DNA of 64,000 nucleotides from a phage, in the sequence record PZ452578.1; one strand, given 5' to 3'. The position numbers and the translations under genes were made by a program. Of this stretch, positions 169 to 54,105 are shown piece after piece. Position 1 is the first letter of the stretch. Each line of letters starts with the position of its first letter. The notes under the pieces are model-generated. The model saw only the letters and a list, made by a program, of their open reading frames with translations, searched no databases and was not told where the DNA came from.

Positions 169-204
169 TTTATTCTCCAAGATGTTTAATTGCGGTACAG
201 GTAT

Positions 205-234
205 ATAATATCATATCCTGTACCAAAGTAAACA
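205..234 (-). promoter_or_regulatory. T4-type early promoter (-35 GTTTAC, -10 TATTAT) embedded in inverted repeat
   Basis: GTTTAC and TATTAT 17 nt apart; GGTACAGG...CCTGTACC flanks the -10. Confidence 0.5.
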
Positions 235-595: not shown

Positions 596-625
596 ATACT
601 ATCACAAAGGAACCATACTGTAAAC
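596..625 (-). promoter_or_regulatory. T4-type early promoter (-35 GTTTACA, -10 TAGTAT)
   Basis: 17-nt spacer; upstream of ORF 236-568. Confidence 0.55.
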
Positions 626-640
626 AACTTTATGCAATCT

Positions 641-673
641 TTGGAAAATAAAAAAGGACTCCCGAAGGAGTCC
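641..673 (-). terminator. rho-independent terminator (GGACUCC-UUCG-GGAGUCC plus U-run)
   Basis: Perfect 7-bp stem, UUCG loop, UUUUUUAUUUU on minus strand. Confidence 0.7.
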
Positions 674-678
674 TCAAC

Positions 679-6286: not shown

Positions 6287-6636
6287 TTAGAAAGGTCCTG
6301 GATGTCTTCTGCGAACTTGTTGAAGGAGTTGTTGATTTGTTTTTCAACCAATCCTGGCTTATGAGCCACCACATCCGCCTTCTTTGCATCTTTGCGCAGT
6401 TTTTCATTTTCACGCTCAATAGCAGCAATTGCCTCACGATTTTTATTATTCATCGCATCAATATAATTATACTGAATTCGCAAATTATCTAATGCTAAAG
6501 CGTTTTCATTGGCCGTTTTTGTAATTTCTACAACAGACGTTTCTAATCTTTCAATTTTATTTTTTAAAATTAAAGAAGTTCCGCCTAATGCAATTACAAT
6601 TAATAGCAAACCTGCTGTCGTATTACTTAATTGCAT
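6283..6636 (-). CDS. putative i-spanin (Rz-like) candidate: N-terminal TM segment plus coiled coil (117 aa)
   Basis: Hydrophobic N-terminus LLLIVIALGG followed by charged helical sequence; position corresponds to T4 pseT.3. Confidence 0.5.
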   Translation of the reverse strand: MQLSNTTAGLLLIVIALGGTSLILKNKIERLETSVVEITKTANENALALDNLRIQYNYIDAMNNKNREAIAAIERENEKLRKDAKKADVVAHKPGLVEKQINNSFNKFAEDIQDLSK

Positions 6637-7133
6637 AAAGTTTTAATAACCTCTATAATATCGTCTTGAGAAAGACCGTTAATTAAAATATGATGTTCAG
6701 CTGGAGATTTAGAAATTTTAAAGCATGCCTCAACATCTTCTGCCATATCCGATGCACTACGATTTGGATTACTAATACCAAGGCGGTGTTTTCCCGTCAA
6801 AGGATTAACGATGATATAGCATTTGCAGCTATTGATATGAACATTGGGTTGAGTCTGATTAATGAACACTTCACAATCATACTTAGCGAGTTGATTTTCT
6901 AAAAAGACTTTCATCTCTTCAACCGCATCAGGAAGCATATCACGGGCTTGCTCAAGACGACGATTTCGATATTCTTTAATGGTCGTTTTCCGCTTGACTT
7001 GCTTAGCTAAATCTTTCTTAAGATCGGTGATATATCCAACTCGACGATTTCCTTTGAATACAGAAATCCCATCTGTAGTATCACCGTATGCTTCAACGAC
7101 CATTTCAGTAGTAATAAGCTGCAAATCCATCAT
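6627..7133 (-). CDS. alc: Alc-like protein (168 aa), assigned by position between pseT and 63
   Basis: Length near T4 Alc (167 aa) and map position; sequence not confidently recognised; early promoter 7162-7191 upstream. Confidence 0.45.
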   Translation of the reverse strand: MMDLQLITTEMVVEAYGDTTDGISVFKGNRRVGYITDLKKDLAKQVKRKTTIKEYRNRRLEQARDMLPDAVEEMKVFLENQLAKYDCEVFINQTQPNVHINSCKCYIIVNPLTGKHRLGISNPNRSASDMAEDVEACFKISKSPAEHHILINGLSQDDIIEVIKTLCN

Positions 7134-15562: not shown

Positions 15563-15588
15563 TTTATTCTCCTCAAGTTGATAAGGCT

Positions 15589-15618
15589 ATAGTATCATTA
15601 CCATAGCCTGTTGTAACA
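15589..15618 (-). promoter_or_regulatory. T4-type early promoter (-35 TGTTACA, -10 TACTAT) within palindrome
   Basis: 17-nt spacer; GGCTAT...ATAGCC inverted repeat. Confidence 0.45.
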
Positions 15619-15619
15619 T

Positions 15620-15847
15620 TTATTTTTGGATTAAGCCCATATAAAATTTAGCATCTTCAGGATACATGCCATCACAATACTCATTGGTCATAAAACTAAT
15701 AAGGTCTTCAAGAGGACCTTGGACCTCAATTTGAATACTAAAGAATTGGGTATCTTTAATGTAAGCCATACTCAAAGAAGGATAACGATTGCGGATAACT
15801 TCGTAAGTGTATTCAAAATCAACAATATCAATATTAACCTTAGCCAT
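15620..15847 (-). CDS. hypothetical protein (75 aa), paralogue of 16334-16564
   Basis: Internal ATG 15847 ([13 protein letters not shown]...) preceded by GAGGAAAATAAA; own early promoter 15877-15907. Confidence 0.5.
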
Positions 15848-15876
15848 TTTATTTTCCTCATGTAGTTGATAGGGTA

Positions 15877-15907
15877 ATAGTATCACACTACTACCCTTAC
15901 TGTAAAC
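15877..15907 (-). promoter_or_regulatory. T4-type early promoter (-35 GTTTACA, -10 TACTAT)
   Basis: Upstream of 75-aa paralogue. Confidence 0.5.
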
Positions 15908-16333: not shown

Positions 16334-16564
16334 TTATTGTTCAATCAGTCCCATGTAAAATTCTGCGTCTTCAGAATCCATGCCATCACAATATTCATTA
16401 GCCATAAAGCGGGTAAGGTCTTCAAGAGGACCTTCAATGACAATAGAAAAATTGCAATAATTGGGATCATCATGAATACTTGTGATACTAAGTTCAGGAT
16501 AACGATTACGAATAATTTCTTCGATATATTCAAAATCAACGATGTCAATATCAACTTTAGCCAT
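16334..16564 (-). CDS. hypothetical protein (76 aa), paralogue of 15620-15847
   Basis: Internal ATG 16564 ([13 protein letters not shown]...) preceded by AAGAGGAAAATAAT; early promoter 16608-16637. Confidence 0.5.
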
Positions 16565-16607
16565 ATTATTTTCCTCTTTAATCATCAGCAGTATTGCCGA
16601 TAGTTGT

Positions 16608-16637
16608 ATAGTACCATGGAAGAACAGGGATGTAAAC
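16608..16637 (-). promoter_or_regulatory. T4-type early promoter (-35 GTTTACA, -10 TACTAT) with A/T-rich UP module
   Basis: 17-nt spacer; part of repeated module. Confidence 0.55.
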
Positions 16638-16654
16638 AGTTTTGTGAAAAAATT

Positions 16655-16687
16655 TTTGAAATAAAAAAGGGGACCCTAGAGGTCCCC
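16655..16687 (-). terminator. rho-independent terminator after gene 32
   Basis: GGGGACC...GGUCCCC stem followed by U-run. Confidence 0.7.
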
Positions 16688-16709: not shown

Positions 16710-17618
16710 TTAAAGGTCATTCAAAAGGTCATCCAGGTCCGTGTCATCAGCACTAGATGAACTGCCAGAGCTTGAGCTCATAAAATCATCTTCAGTTTTT
16801 GTATTGAAGTCATCAACATTGAATGCATCCAAATCATCAGCAACTTTATCAGCTTTCTTAGCAGCAGTTGCAGCGGCACCGCCCATCACAGCAGTTCCCA
16901 TAACTTGACCGAATTTAGTATTCAGTTCTTCAAACGATTTGAATTTATCTTTAGAAGTCATTTCAGAAAGGTCAACCATTTGTTCGAACAGTTCTTTCTG
17001 GAAAGATTCATCATCAATGTTTGGAATCGCAGATTGATTCAGGAATTTAGATTCGTCGTAGTTACTAAAACCAGAAACTTGTTTAACTTTCAGTACAAAG
17101 TTAGCACCTTCCCATGGACAAGTTACATCAACCGGAGTTTCACCCATTTCAACATCAACCGCAATCATCGCGTTGATTTTATCCCAGATTTTCTTACCGA
17201 AACGGTATTTAAATACTTTACCTTCGTTTTCTGGAGCAGCTGGGTCTTTTACTACAAGAATGTTAGCCCAGTAAGAAGTTTTACGTTTAACAAGACCGTA
17301 CTCTTTATTGTCAGTGTTGTACAAATCATTTTTACTGATGTACTGACATACTGGACAAGAATCGTAATCACCGTGGGTAGATGAACAGTTTTCAATATAC
17401 CATTTACCATTTTTCTTGAAACCGTGATTTACAAGAATTGCGAATGGTGCTTGTTCATCATTTTTAGACGGAAGAAAACGAATTACTGCTTGACCGTTAC
17501 CCGCATTATCGAGTTTCAGTTTCCACTCGCCTTTATCTTCAGAAGAAAAACCACCCTTATTTCCAGCCAGTTTAGCCATTTGTGCAGCGAGTTCAGCAGT
17601 AGATTTACGTTTAAACAT
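16710..17618 (-). CDS. 32: single-stranded DNA-binding protein gp32 (302 aa)
   Basis: N-terminus [17 protein letters not shown] as T4 gp32; known autoregulatory leader upstream. Confidence 0.9.
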
Positions 17619-19982: not shown

Positions 19983-22900
19983 ATGGCCGAGATTAAAAGA
20001 AAGTTCAGAGCAGAAGATGGTCTGGACGCAGGTGGCGATAAAATAATCAACGTAGCTTTAGCTGATCGTGCCGTAGGAACTGACGGTGTTAACGTTGATT
20101 ACTTAATTCAAGAAAACACAGTTCAACAATACGATCCAACTCGTGGATATTTAAAAGATTTTGTAATCATTTATGATAACCGCTTTTGGGCTGCTATAAA
20201 TGATATTCCAAAACCAGCAGGAGCTTTTAATAGCGTACGCTGGAGAGCGTTACGTACTGATGCAAACTGGACAACTGTTTCATCAGGACCTTATCAATTA
20301 AAATCGGGTGAATCAATTTCAGTTGATACTGCAGCTGGTAATGACATTACATTTACTTTACCATCTACCCCAATTGACGGTGATACTATCGTTCTCCAAG
20401 ATATTGGAGGAAAACCTGGAGTTAATCAAGTTTTAATTACAGCTCCGGTACAAAGCATTGTAAATTTTAGAGGTCAGCAAGTACGTTCAGTACTAATGAC
20501 TCATCCAAAATCACAGATAGTTTTAATTTTTAGTAATCGTCTGTGGCAAATGTATGTCGCTGATTATAGTAGAGAAGCTGTAGTTGTAACGCCTGCGAGT
20601 CTCTATCAGGCTCAATCAAACGATTTTATCGTACGTAGATTTACTTCTGCTTCAGCAATTAATATTAAACTTCCAAGATTTGCCAATCATGGCGATATTA
20701 TTAATTTCGTTGATTTGGATAAATTAAATCCTCTTTATCACACAATTGTTACTACATATGATGAAACAACTTCAGTACAAGAAGTTGGAACTCATTCCAT
20801 TGAAGGTCGTACATCGATTGACGGTTTCTTGATGTTTGATGATAATGAGAAATTGTGGAGATTGTTTGACGGGGATAGTAAAGCACGTTTACGCATTATA
20901 ACAACTAATTCTAATATTCGTCCAAATGAAGAAGTCATGGTATTTGGCGCGAATAATGGAACAACCCAAACAATTGAACTTCAGCTTCCGACTGATATTT
21001 CTGTTGGTGATACTGTCAAAATTTCCATGAATTACATGAGAAAAGGACAAACGGTTAAAATCAAAGCTGCAGGTGAAGATAAAATTGCTTCTTCAGTTCA
21101 ATTGCTGCAATTCCCAAAACGCTCAGAATATCCACTTGAAGCTGAGTGGGTTACAGTTCAAGAATTAGTTTTTAACGGTGAAACTAATTATGTTCCAGTT
21201 TTGGAGCTTGCTTATATTGAAGATTCTGATGGAAAATATTGGGTTGTACAGCAAAACGTTCCAACTGTAGAAAGAGTAGATTCTTTAAATGATTCTACTA
21301 GAGCAAGATTAGGGGTAATTGCTTTAGCTACACAAGCTCAAGCTAATGCTGATTTAGAAAATTCTCCACAAAAAGAATTGGCAATTACTCCAGAAACGTT
21401 AGCTAATCGTACTGCTACAGAAACTCGTAGAGGTATTGCAAGAATAGCAACTACTGCTCAAGTTAACCAGGATACTACATTCTCTTTTGCTGATGATATT
21501 ATCATCACTCCTAAAAAGCTGAATGAAAGAACAGCTACTGAAACTCGCAGAGGTGTTGCTGAAATTGCTACACAGCAAGAAACTAATACAGGAACCGATG
21601 ATACTACAATCATCACTCCTAAAAAGCTTCAAGCTCGACAAGGTTCTGAATCATTATCTGGTATTGTAACTTTTGTATCTACTGCAGGTGCTACTCCAGC
21701 TTCTAGCCGTGAATTAAATGGTACGAATGTTTATAATAAAAACACTAATAATTTAGTTGTTTCACCTAAAGCTTTGGATCAGTATAAAGCTACTCCAACA
21801 CAGCAAGGTGCAGTAATTTTAGCAGTTGAAAGTGAAGTAATTGCTGGACAAAGTCAGGAAGGATGGGCAAATGCGGTTGTAACGCCAGAAACGTTACATA
21901 AAAAGACATCAACTGATGGAAGAATTGGTTTAATTGAAATTGCTACGCAAAGTGAAGTTAATACAGGAACTGATTATACTCGTGCAGTCACTCCTAAAAC
22001 TTTAAATGACCGTAGAGCAACTGAAAGTTTAAGTGGTATAGCTGAAATTGCTACGCAAGTTGAATTCGACGCAGGCGTCGACGATACTCGTATCTCTACA
22101 CCATTAAAAATTAAAACCAGATTTAATAGTACTGATCGTACTTCTGTTGTTGCTCTATCTGGATTAGTTGAATCAGGAACTCTCTGGGACCATTATACCC
22201 TTAATATTCTTGAAGCAAACGAGACACAACGTGGTACACTTCGTGTAGCTACACAGGTCGAAGCTGCTGCAGGAACATTAGATAATGTTTTAATAACTCC
22301 TAAAAAGCTTTTAGGTACTAAATCTACTGAAGCGCAAGAAGGTGTTATTAAAGTTGCAACTCAGTCTGAAACTGTGACTGGAACGTCAACAAATACTGCT
22401 GTATCTCCAAAAAATTTAAAATGGATTGTGCAGAGTGAACCTACTTGGGCAGCAACTACTCTGATAAGAGGTTTTGTTAAAACTTCATCTGGTTCAATTA
22501 CATTCGTTGGTAATGATACGGTAGGTTCAACACAGCCATTAGAATCATATGAGAAAAATAGCTATGCAGTATCACCATATGAATTAAACCGTGTATTAGC
22601 AAATTATCTGCCGTTAAAAGCAAAAGCTGTAGATAGTAATTTATTGGATGGTCTAGATTCATCTCAGTTCATTCGTAGGGATATTGCACAGACGGTTAAT
22701 GGTTCACTAACCTTAACCCAACAAACGAATCTGAGTGCCCCTCTTGTATCATCTAGTACTGCTACGTTTGGTGGTTCAGTTACGGCAAATAGTGTACTAA
22801 CTATTTCTAATACTGGAACAGAAACTCATCTGATTTTTGAGAAAGGACCTCAAACTGGAACTAACCAAGCACAGACGGTGACTATTAGAGTGTGGGGTAA

Positions 22901-24976: not shown

Positions 24977-24980
24977 ATTG

Positions 24981-25007
24981 AGGGAGCCTTCGGGTTCCCT
25001 TTTTCTT
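24981..25007 (+). terminator. rho-independent terminator after gene 35
   Basis: GGGAGCC-UUCG-GGUUCCC then UUUUUCUUU. Confidence 0.65.
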
Positions 25008-32605: not shown

Positions 32606-33241
32606 TCACAGTTCAGATGCTACAGTGATTACTGCTTCAATGTTTTCTGCCGAGCGTTTAATGTCAAGATACACATTACCGTTTTTAGCGATTTTACATG
32701 ACATTCCGATGTCAGTAAATTTCTGAATATGATGTTCCATCATTTTGTATCCAAAAATTCGCATATTTCCATTGTTGTTAATTTCAAAATTACGAATTCC
32801 GTGAGTACGTTTTTCTAAAATAGCGAGATAGTTACTACGATAAGTTTCAACCTTTTTAAGAACAAATCCATTTTCATCTAAAAGTTTTAACATGAAGTCT
32901 TTATCTTCTTCCATATCAGAAGTAATCTCACGAGCTTTACGAGTTGCTCGTTTTTTCAGTAGTTCCGGAGCATTTTCCTGTGCGTATAAAGTTGCTGCGT
33001 TTGAAATAATATCCTGAGCTTCACCAGTAATGATTAATCCATCACCAGATTTCTCCACCAGGCCTTTTTTAATCAATACCCCAATATTACTATTAACTAC
33101 TGCGTTACCTAAATCTGGATGCACCTCACGAACTTCTGCAGCTGTAATGAAATCTTTCTTAGCAATGGTAATTAAAATCGCAGCAGTTTTTTCATTCAGA
33201 ACATCGTTAGAAGCTTTGATGATGTAAGTTACTTTAGACAT
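32606..33241 (-). CDS. motA: middle-transcription activator MotA (211 aa)
   Basis: Sequence recognised as T4 MotA; early promoter 33283-33312. Confidence 0.9.
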   Translation of the reverse strand: MSKVTYIIKASNDVLNEKTAAILITIAKKDFITAAEVREVHPDLGNAVVNSNIGVLIKKGLVEKSGDGLIITGEAQDIISNAATLYAQENAPELLKKRATRKAREITSDMEEDKDFMLKLLDENGFVLKKVETYRSNYLAILEKRTHGIRNFEINNNGNMRIFGYKMMEHHIQKFTDIGMSCKIAKNGNVYLDIKRSAENIEAVITVASEL

Positions 33242-33282: not shown

Positions 33283-33312
33283 ATAGTACCACAGTATGCT
33301 TTGGTTGTAAAC
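33283..33312 (-). promoter_or_regulatory. T4-type early promoter for motA
   Basis: GTTTACA, spacer, TACTAT; same module as 16608-16637. Confidence 0.55.
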
Positions 33313-33336
33313 CGTTTTGTGAAAAAAAATTTTTGA

Positions 33337-33365
33337 AATAAAAAAGGGAGAGCCTCGGCTCTCCC
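33337..33365 (-). terminator. rho-independent terminator upstream of motA promoter
   Basis: GGGAGAGC-CGAG-GCUCUCCC plus long U-run. Confidence 0.65.
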
Positions 33366-33370
33366 TAAAA

Positions 33371-33520
33371 TTACTGCATGACTGTGATAACTGTCATGAT
33401 AACACGTTGAATTCCGAACGCAAGAAGACCTCCTGCTACGGCTGGAACAACGCCTAAACCCGCTAGTAAAATGCTACCAGATACTAATGCAGCGCTTGTA
33501 ATACCTATGAATGGACTCAT
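33371..33520 (-). CDS. small hydrophobic membrane protein (49 aa)
   Basis: ATG 33520 overlaps gene 52 stop (ATGA); below track cutoff; terminator follows. Confidence 0.4.
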   Translation of the reverse strand: MSPFIGITSAALVSGSILLAGLGVVPAVAGGLLAFGIQRVIMTVITVMQ

Positions 33521-36561: not shown

Positions 36562-36588
36562 TTTCTGTTCCTCCGTAGTTGATAGTTG

Positions 36589-36619
36589 TATAGTACCACA
36601 GAGGAACAGTCTTGTAAAC
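36589..36619 (-). promoter_or_regulatory. T4-type early promoter in ndd-denB region
   Basis: GTTTACA and TACTAT. Confidence 0.45.
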
Positions 36620-36835
36620 AACTTTTTAAAAATATTCGTAATAAATGTGAATACCAACTACTACCGCTGAAACCTGTGCAACCCACCACGCACAAGCAAT
36701 AAGTACAGAATTCAAAATTTTCATAATAACCTCATCACAAAAGTAAATGTTAAACAAATTAATGGAATACTAATTAACCAAACAAAACACCACCATAATG
36801 AACTCATAGTTCAATCTCAACGATTTTCATTTTAC

Positions 36836-37042
36836 TCAATAATCCGCTAAAAGATCGACGATTGTATCACGAAGACACTTATTCGCAATACGTTTAAGAG
36901 CAATTTCAGTTTCTGGAGCATTTTGAATAATCATTGAATTCAATTCAGCCTCAGCAAACTGAAGTTCTTTAACTAATTCAGCTTTATATTTTCCTTGCCC
37001 TTTCTTAGCTTTTGCTCGTTTTAATTCAGCTGTAGTAAACAT
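36836..37042 (-). CDS. hypothetical protein (68 aa)
   Basis: Internal ATG 37042 with GGAGAA SD; track ORF N-terminus overlaps promoter module. Confidence 0.4.
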   Translation of the reverse strand: MFTTAELKRAKAKKGQGKYKAELVKELQFAEAELNSMIIQNAPETEIALKRIANKCLRDTIVDLLADY

Positions 37043-37074
37043 TTTATTCTCCAAATCCGTATCAGTTGATAATT

Positions 37075-37104
37075 GTATATTACCACAGTCCTTGTGGTAT
37101 GTAA
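37075..37104 (-). promoter_or_regulatory. T4-type early promoter in ndd-denB region
   Basis: GTTTACA and TAATAT plus UP-like module. Confidence 0.45.
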
Positions 37105-37125
37105 ACCGTTTTGTGAAAAAATTTT

Positions 37126-37683
37126 TTAAATGGAAAGATACCATCCATTGTAGTTGCTTTTTCTTACAACCTTACGAAGGTCTTCTCTATCACCGATGAA
37201 TTTCGGAGTGTACTGGATGACACCTGGATGAATTTCTTTAGTGTTGAATATAATTATACAGTCAGCGACTTGATGATTTAGAATGGGCCCTAGATTTATT
37301 CCAGAACCATATGGATATTCTCCGCTGCATCCGGTTGTTACCGAAATCCATCGTGAGTCAGTTTGATGTGTTTTGACTTCTACACGAAGCCCACAGTATT
37401 TTGGATGCGCCAATACATCCCATGCATATGTGTACGGATCATCGACATCTTCTTGACCTTTATTAACATACCCGCTTAACCAATCTGCTACAAAAAACTC
37501 TGCGTACACAGCGATACGACATCTTTCGATAACTTCTGCCTTATCCTGGTTCGGGTTTTGTTTTAAAGAGTATCTTGCTGTATCAGCAATTTTGACTTTC
37601 ATTTCACTAGTCAAGTCACTGTTCGATAGGGTAAATGTCGGAATCTGAAATAGTCTCTGTAGCCCCGGATTCGTTTTCTGCAT
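37126..37683 (-). CDS. denB: endonuclease IV (185 aa)
   Basis: 185 aa as T4 DenB, position adjacent to rIIB. Confidence 0.7.
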   Translation of the reverse strand: MQKTNPGLQRLFQIPTFTLSNSDLTSEMKVKIADTARYSLKQNPNQDKAEVIERCRIAVYAEFFVADWLSGYVNKGQEDVDDPYTYAWDVLAHPKYCGLRVEVKTHQTDSRWISVTTGCSGEYPYGSGINLGPILNHQVADCIIIFNTKEIHPGVIQYTPKFIGDREDLRKVVRKSNYNGWYLSI

Positions 37684-45020: not shown

Positions 45021-45105
45021 GTTGTTTTCTATATCAGTAGTTGATATTGATATAGTACCATAATCAACTACTGATGTATATAGTTTTATGAAAAAATTTT
45101 AAACT

Positions 45106-54035: not shown

Positions 54036-54065
54036 ATTATACCATACTCATTTTGGAAAGTAAAC
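54036..54065 (-). promoter_or_regulatory. T4-type early promoter downstream of soc terminator
   Basis: GTTTAC and TATAAT. Confidence 0.45.
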
Positions 54066-54070
54066 CATTT

Positions 54071-54099
54071 AAATGAAAAAAGGACTCCCGAAGGAGTCC
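54071..54099 (-). terminator. rho-independent terminator after soc (same sequence as 641-673)
   Basis: GGACUCC-UUCG-GGAGUCC plus UUUUUUCAUUU. Confidence 0.7.
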
Positions 54100-54105
54100 T
54101 TGAAT

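Follow-up and report, generated by a model that had tools for sequence, protein, structure and literature searches.

The window, that is, the whole stretch of 64,000 nt that was analysed, carries the genes dsbA, 33, 59, 32 and frd.3, all on the minus strand. The gene orders dsbA-33-59-32-frd.3 and 52-motA.1-motA, and also denB, are as in T4, and a 3-kb query around the site called copy A below showed 95-98% identity to hundreds of Tequatrovirus (T4-like) genomes in BLAST. Judged by its sequence, the window is DNA of a Tequatrovirus, a T4-like coliphage; the early genes lie on its minus strand. A repeated block is present between gene 32 and frd.3 (copy A), between motA.1 and motA (copy B) and behind denB (copy C). 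The features at the three sites are as follows.

16710-17618, minus strand: coding sequence of gene 32, upstream of copy A
16669-16687, minus strand: copy A, predicted terminator hairpin GGGGACC-TCTAG-GGTCCCC (8-bp stem, -15.5 kcal/mol)
16659-16668, minus strand: copy A, terminator U-tract TTTTTTATTT, from the sequence
16639-16657, minus strand: copy A, UP element AAAAATTTTTTCACAAAAC, with a distal A/T block and a proximal AAAA block
16631-16637, minus strand: copy A, -35 element GTTTACA (hexamer TTTACA at 16631-16636)
16608-16616, minus strand: copy A, TGG and -10 element TACTAT (extended -10), from the sequence
16334-16564, minus strand: frd.3, downstream of copy A
33371-33520, minus strand: motA.1 open reading frame (ORF), upstream of copy B
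33346-33365, minus strand: copy B, predicted terminator hairpin GGGAGAGC-CGAG-GCTCTCCC (-17.6 kcal/mol, z = -3.97)
33336-33345, minus strand: copy B, U-tract directly behind the hairpin
33314-33334, minus strand: copy B, UP element AAAAATTTTTTTTCACAAAAC, from the sequence
33283-33312, minus strand: copy B, core of the motA early promoter (GTTTACA, 17-bp spacer, TGG-TACTAT), from the sequence
32606-33241, minus strand: coding sequence of motA, downstream of copy B
37126-37128, minus strand: stop codon of denB, overlapped by the UP element of copy C
37108-37127, minus strand: copy C, UP element, overlapping the denB stop
37100-37106, minus strand: copy C, -35 element, from the sequence
37077-37082, minus strand: copy C, -10 element TAATAT, from the sequence
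37077-37127, minus strand: copy C as a whole, an early promoter without terminator, ahead of the 68-aa ORF
36836-37042, minus strand: 68-aa ORF with no function assigned, downstream of copy C

Copies A (16631-16687) and B (33306-33365) have the block TGTAAAC(A/C)GTTTTGTGAAAAAA(AA)TTTTTGAAATAAAAAAGGG in common. It is 40-42 nt long, with 1 mismatch and a 2-nt difference in the A-run, and is followed by a GC-rich hairpin, exactly as a sequence-only reading of this DNA had described. On the minus strand, the order in both copies is hairpin (8-9 bp), UUUUUUAUUU, UP element, GTTTACA, 17-bp spacer, TGG, TACTAT and ACAACT-ATCAAC. The hairpin of copy A lies 22 nt past the stop codon of gene 32 and is orthologous to the T4 gene 32 terminator, and that of copy B lies 5 nt past the stop codon of motA.1; each is the top terminator match in its region. 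The two terminators had been called near-identical. This applies to the U-tract and the first G's, which are all that the two share, but not to the hairpins, which differ in sequence.

The site behind denB had been reported as a diverged copy at 37098-37135 with the same order of terminator hairpin, U-run, UP element and GTTTACA. Folds and spacing bear out this order for copies A and B. Copy C shares TGTAAACCGTTTTGTGAAAAAATTTTTT, 28 nt at 37100-37127, beyond which it is diverged, but its fold has neither a GC hairpin nor a U-run; the sole hairpin found there, a weak AU one, does not qualify as an intrinsic terminator. Since copy C lacks a terminator, a module of terminator plus promoter does not describe all copies.

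What the copies have in common is a promoter. All three contain TTTACA, 17 nt and TACTAT or TAATAT, with a TGn extended -10 (hexamers at 16636, 33311 and 37105). The UP region AAAAATTTTTT(TT)CACAAAAC is placed directly 5' of the -35 element, and the upstream 30 nt are 80-87% A+T. Copies B and C as well as 10 relatives have the UP element of copy A in identical form. The repeated module had been read as the UP and -35 elements, which are indeed both present, but the conserved unit does not end at the -35: TGG-TACTAT (-10) and then roughly 15 transcribed nucleotides (ACAACTATCAACT) belong to it as well, so that it covers the whole promoter. Within this unit the 17-bp spacer is the sole non-conserved part. 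A Shine-Dalgarno sequence (GAGG or GGAG) and an ATG follow 28-43 nt past the core promoter; counted from the -10, the ATG is 34-43 nt away in the three copies, and for the ribosome site and ATG of copies A and B the distance is 41-43 nt. Transcription of copy A probably starts at the A at about 16601 on the minus strand, and the starts of copies B and C are predicted at about 33276 and near 37070 on the same strand. At many early promoters, transcripts are predicted to begin with ATCAAC(T), for example at 16601, 33276, 37070, 36583 and 15864. RB69, WG01 and Karamvirus likewise retain ATCAA at their motA promoters.

Reuse of the module at several loci, as had been claimed, was confirmed by a motif search of the window. 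The 22-nt core gave three exact matches and one with 3 mismatches (45075-45096), for an expectation of 0.01 from shuffled sequences. In an unbiased repeat search, no direct-repeat family in the window was larger than that of these promoters, whose five copies of 65 nt start at 16594, 33269, 36576, 37063 and 45038. Two members of this family from the repeat search are in addition to copies A, B and C.

36576-36640, minus strand: family member D, GTTTAC (36614-36619), N18, TACTAT and start region ACAACTATCAACTA
45038-45102, minus strand: family member downstream of motB, AAAATTTTTTCATAAAACT-ATATACA, N17 and TACTAT

A scan of the whole window against Rfam at gathering thresholds returned no family; thus, no known structured RNA accounts for the repeats. 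A separate repeat lies in the region of the long tail-fibre gene 34 (21491-22331), where a 52-nt coding repeat (...ATCACTCCTAAAAAGCT...ACTGAA) is present in 4 copies with spacings of 108-375 nt.

Scans of the window for generic sigma-70 hexamers were not enriched over shuffled sequences (24 matches for 21.6 expected, and 36 for 36.6). Since such scans stay at the shuffle level in this A/T-rich genome, the promoter call rests on the extended module, the position and orthology. A position-weight matrix built from 7 seeds was over-fitted and missed promoters with other spacers; therefore, regular-expression scans and repeat families were used instead. All three copy sites are also present in T4 and 9 other Tequatroviruses. 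By sequence and position, copy A is the orthologue of the T4 early promoter between gene 32 and frd.3, copy B of that between motA.1 and motA, and copy C of that downstream of denB. In the public record of Yersinia phage fPS-65, a close relative, A and B are each labelled with both 'terminator' and 'predicted early promoter', and C has just the 'predicted early promoter' label. Based on these results, we regard copies A, B and C as strong early promoters of the T4 type with a probability of roughly 0.9, and predict promoter and terminator activity from them. The promoter of copy C is predicted to drive the 68-aa ORF. For annotation of the phage, the copies would mark the starts of three early transcription units and the ends of two upstream units.

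An extended consensus of T4 early promoters has long been known; it is credited in later work to Liebig and Ruger (1989). These promoters have been described as 'uber' promoters that combine UP, -35, TGn and -10 with additional consensus regions (Hinton 2010, PMC2988021); their -35 element is GTTTAC at -36 to -31, and 5 of 6 T4-like genomes share a conserved terminator behind gene 32 (PMC1524935). The window agrees with them in GTTTAC(A), TGn, TAnnAT, the UP element, a consensus beyond the hexamers and the position 5' of early genes. There is no difference in kind; the alleles proper to the window are the spacer a1 (see below), two extra T's in copy B and TAATAT in copy C. T4 early promoters are also said to have been treated by Wilkens and Ruger in 1996. 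As for the UP element, a SELEX consensus was reportedly obtained by Estrem et al. in 1998. The arrangement AAAAATTTTTT, a 3-nt gap and AAAA next to the -35 fits the distal and proximal subsites for the alpha C-terminal domains in the E. coli UP consensus. Compared with E. coli UP elements of the rrnB P1 type, the register of the window relative to the -35 is shifted by 1-2 nt from the consensus.

In copies A and B, the promoter follows 31-32 nt behind a strong intrinsic terminator. Exactly four intrinsic terminators (654-675, 16669-16687, 33345-33366 and 54080-54101) were found on the minus strand across the 64 kb when strict criteria were set: a minimum of 7 pairs, 4 GC pairs and 6 T in 8. 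All four are followed by GTTTAC-N18-TAnnAT within the next 14-32 nt. On the plus strand, the sole terminator (24980-25001, within the late region of the tail-fibre genes, T4 genes 34-38) has no such promoter behind it. Thus, the composite of terminator and promoter is a regular design on the early strand. Besides copies A and B, folding and the regular-expression scan gave two composites.

596-675, minus strand: composite of hairpin 654-675, U-tract, GTTTAC at 620-625 and TAGTAT at 596-601
54036-54101, minus strand: composite of hairpin 54080-54101, GTTTAC at 54060-54065 and TATAAT at 54036-54041

The stretches 645-674 and 54071-54100, which are 53 kb apart, contain the same hairpin (AGGACTCCTTCGGGAGTCCT and a T-run) with 93% identity over 30 nt, and a different early promoter is found behind each.

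The order of the composite would be stop, U-tract, UP element and restart. Transcripts arriving from the preceding unit (gene 32, or 52/motA.1) would be halted by the terminator, and its T-run would lengthen the A/T-rich upstream region. The UP element would then be contacted by the alpha C-terminal domains of the host sigma-70 RNA polymerase, by which the -35, TGn and -10 elements would also be recognised. Transcription would restart from the early promoter at the A of the conserved ATCAAC, about 30-45 nt ahead of the GGAG/GAGG ribosome site. In this way frd.3 and motA would depend on the early promoter alone and be shielded from read-through. Such insulation would restrict motA synthesis to the early period, and some read-through of the hairpin may occur.

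The composite matches the promoter-early stem-loop (PeSL) of T4-type phages, defined by Arbiol et al. (2010, PMC2839356) as the pairing of a stem-loop terminator and a strong early promoter. [quoted passage not shown] Comeau et al. (2014, PMC4122927) give TTTACW-N17-TAYWAT as the PeSL consensus of the T4/PST pair and show an example from ndd/denB. The window shares with the PeSL the composite of stem-loop terminator, A/T-rich region, early promoter, Shine-Dalgarno sequence and ATG; copies A and B and the composites at 596-675 and 54036-54101 have all of it, and copy C has it in part, without a GC stem-loop. PeSLs are present in many copies per genome; the window has about 18-19 early promoters, 4 upstream terminators and 7 hairpins over the -10, and the PeSL subclasses listed by Arbiol et al. 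cover both the upstream terminators and the -10 inverted repeats. Between close relatives, genes at PeSLs are inserted, deleted or replaced (T4 versus PST, ndd/denB), and the same was found at copies B and C and at the promoter at the end of frd.2. Unlike the cassettes of hyperplastic regions in the PeSL account, however, copies A and B border conserved core genes (32 and motA). From T4 early promoters and PeSLs, this type of element is thus already known, as are the way it works and the part it plays in evolution.

The region from copy A to copy C was compared in T4, fPS-65, VEc74, Sf22, RB68, HY03, JE01, slur14, ECML-134 and YUEEL01. The spacer of copy B is unchanged in 8 of these 10 relatives, and 1-2 of its 18 positions differ in JE01 and ECML-134. 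At copy A, three unrelated spacer alleles were found: ATCC(C/T)TGT(T/C)CTTCCATGG (a1) in the window and six relatives, AAGCATAAAGCTTTATGG in T4 and slur14, and AACCAAAGCAT(A/G)CTGTGG, which is the motA spacer, in VEc74 and JE01. With 17-18/18 identity, the motA spacer, AACCAAAGCATACTGTGG, also sits in the gene 32/frd.3 promoter of VEc74 and JE01 and of 87 records, and copies A and B of VEc74 are identical at 72 of 73 positions. The alleles were counted by BLAST in an isolate-phage collection (about 500 genomes), each query consisting of a spacer joined to the copy-A-specific leader; the three alleles gave 313, 87 and 87 full-length records. Moreover, the a1 spacer was found at other loci in IMG/VR contigs, and the start-region alleles ACAACT and TACCCT are distributed as a mosaic across loci and phages. 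Among 11 genomes, the promoters ahead of rnh and asiA, taken as controls, show hardly any variation.

The 17-18-nt spacer is not known to make base-specific contacts. Identity across such a spacer therefore argues for gene conversion between dispersed promoters and not for convergence, and indicates that segments of early promoters have probably been exchanged between loci by this route. Concerted evolution by frequent short-tract ectopic gene conversion is well supported. It is equally well supported that entire spacers and start regions pass from one locus to another over distances of up to 17 kb; the motA spacer occupies the gene 32/frd.3 promoter in about 18% of about 490 genomes. Near-identical promoter blocks of 45-73 bp in one orientation would serve phage recombination as homology, and recombination at them would lead to short-patch gene conversion as well as swaps, insertions and deletions of the small genes behind. 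A gene 32/frd.3 spacer with three alleles, one of them the motA spacer, is absent from the PeSL accounts of Arbiol et al. (2010), as far as accessible, and Comeau et al. (2014), and the copying of promoter segments between distant loci at the population level goes beyond the T4 and PeSL descriptions in the parts available. These alleles are a clean natural example of gene conversion among dispersed viral regulatory repeats.

Independent convergence alone, in which each promoter was selected separately for contacts with the E. coli polymerase, with no exchange between loci and no role as recombination homology, is decidedly unlikely. The shared upstream block does fit the T4 early consensus, and also the E. 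coli UP consensus (distal AAAWWTWTTTT and proximal AAAA). Selection for contacts could also keep TCACAAAAC-GTTTACA upstream of motA in RB69, whose MotA is just 52% identical, and the same 22-nt block in unrelated uncultivated contigs. However, the motA spacer at the gene 32/frd.3 promoter is a strong argument against this explanation, and the a1 spacer at further loci, the mosaic start regions and the near invariance of the rnh and asiA promoters also oppose it.

The block was followed beyond the Tequatroviruses. Upstream of motA, RB69 has a hairpin, TTTT, TCACAAAACA and GTTTACA, and WG01 has a hairpin, a T-run and GTTTACA; in Gelderlandvirus and Karamvirus, an A/T-rich hairpin is located directly ahead of GTTTACA. 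A pattern scan of IMG/VR gave 16 loci, and the census was made by BLAST instead. The exact 22-nt block TTTTTTCACAAAACNGTTTACA, followed by TGTGGTATAAT, was found in uncultivated low-GC contigs (IMG/VR L005, L018, L019 and L013), and L005 contains four promoters with the block within 2.5 kb. For two non-Tequatrovirus contigs with the block, a megablast search against isolate phages found no relatives.

Inverted repeats bracketing the -10 had been noted at several early promoters, and those at 194-224, 15584-15609 and 15871-15897 proved to be real.

194-224, minus strand: early promoter with inverted repeat GGTACAGGATAT-GATATTAT-ATACCTGTACC enclosing the -10 (-16.1 kcal/mol, 0.5th percentile)
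15584-15609, minus strand: early promoter with inverted repeat AGGCTAT...ATAGCCT over the -10, from the fold
15871-15897, minus strand: early promoter at the end of frd.2 with inverted repeat AGGGTAGTAGT-GTGAT-ACTATTACCCT over the -10, from the fold

Folding energies were compared with those of random 42-nt windows, because counting of contiguous Watson-Crick stems missed imperfect inverted repeats. A hairpin enclosing the -10 had an energy in the lowest 5% at 7 of the 18 predicted early promoters (binomial P about 1.5e-5) and in the lowest 1% at 5 of them (binomial P about 8e-7). The sequences of the arms vary from promoter to promoter. At one promoter with two alleles (AGGCTAT../..ATAGCCT and GGGTAGTAGT../..ACTATTACCC), the pairing is kept in both, and a 10-bp repeat of the same kind is present at the motA promoter of an Aeromonas phage. 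A common operator formed by these inverted repeats was rejected, as their sequences differ between promoters.

It would be speculative to assign an additional signal to the CAC in the UP element, the ATCAAC start and the structure-conserved -10 inverted repeats. That the early promoters of Tequatroviruses evolve in concert and carry a further unrecognised signal, for example for early shut-off, is improbable. It is still less probable that the CAC before the proximal A-block, or ATCAAC, is an operator bound by a regulator that switches the early promoters off. The shut-off of these promoters is incompletely understood according to reviews (PMC3014915, PMC2988021), and the ATCAA at the predicted start is kept across many promoters and genera. 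Nevertheless, known polymerase contacts (UP, -35, TGn and -10) together with the start-site preference explain nearly all of the conserved positions, and the inverted repeats vary in sequence between promoters.

The sequence-only reading had named, as evidence against its view, a restriction of the copies to these loci with identical neighbouring genes in all relatives. Both the neighbouring genes and the promoter segments were found to differ between relatives. Behind copy C, three different ORFs (MFTTA, MKFKF or MKIAE) are present, and the promoter and 5' UTR are conserved. The promoter at the end of frd.2 is followed by one of three different cassettes, depending on the phage. Concerted exchange at these promoters would explain differences in small genes behind them among otherwise near-identical phages.

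The cassette of the window behind the frd.2-end promoter is a tandem paralogue of frd.3 (15620-15847 versus 16334-16564), with the same PHROG, about 80% nucleotide identity and a spacing of 714-717 nt; frd.3 and the paralogue are each preceded by a separate early promoter. Where the paralogue lies in the window, T4 carries a tiny ORF (MFAPY...) that is not annotated. In YUEEL01 (about 6479-6885) and IMG/VR L012, an extra ORF (75 aa, MKFKIENEIVKA...) is located between motA.1 and motA behind copy B, and its junction is inside the conserved start region (ACAACTATCAA|ATAAATG).

The terminator loops also vary. At the gene 32 terminator, the window, fPS-65 and Sf22 have the loop TCTAG and 8 other genomes have CTAGA; at the motA terminator, the loop is CGAG in 7 genomes, and CTCG in Sf22, RB68, ECML-134 and YUEEL01. 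The stems are constant between relatives and each pair of loops is an exact reverse complement, which suggests that the loops may have been flipped repeatedly within the palindrome. Together with the allele census at gene 32/frd.3, the loop inversions in both terminators are small additions to the known picture.

The least probable explanation is that the hairpin and the block form a recombinase target, a mobile or site-specific recombination element whose mobility is primary over transcription. Gene swaps and insertions exactly behind the modules and the inverted hairpin loops would agree with it, and Arbiol et al. (PMC2839356) detected PeSL mini-circles and considered, as a speculation, a protein targeting the stem-loop. 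However, the hairpins differ between the copies and copy C has none; no terminal inverted repeats, target duplications or recombinase gene were noticed in an unsystematic look, in which the adjacent ORFs were annotated or scanned. Moreover, copies A and B flank conserved core genes in an order that is constant among the compared genomes, and T4 general recombination would be sufficient, as homology of less than 50 bp is enough according to work cited in PMC2839356. A transposon or MITE was rejected, as an unsystematic look among the neighbours revealed no terminal repeats, target duplications or transposase.

The hairpin of copy A resembles the T4 gene 32 terminator in being a GC-rich hairpin with a U-tract directly behind the gene 32 stop codon, and its loop TCTAG is the reverse complement of the T4 loop CTAGA. 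The omega interposon of Prentki and Krisch (from 1984) reportedly uses the T4 gene 32 terminator. A literature text search for the omega interposon together with the gene 32 terminator found nothing, and the link to omega draws on background knowledge and the following plasmid matches. A 117-bp fragment of T4 copy A that ends at a HindIII site was found twice each in 3 plasmids at 100% identity. These matches are consistent with use of the gene 32 terminator as a cloning terminator, and the duplicated T4 fragment in marked plasmids would fit its use in the omega interposon. The T4 spacer of copy A (T4 16858-16876, minus strand) contains a perfect 14-nt palindrome, CATAAAGCTTTATG, between the -35 and -10, with a HindIII site. 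In the pCoo plasmid, the T4 gene 32 fragment is located beside an aph(3')-IIIa cassette inserted near cooA.
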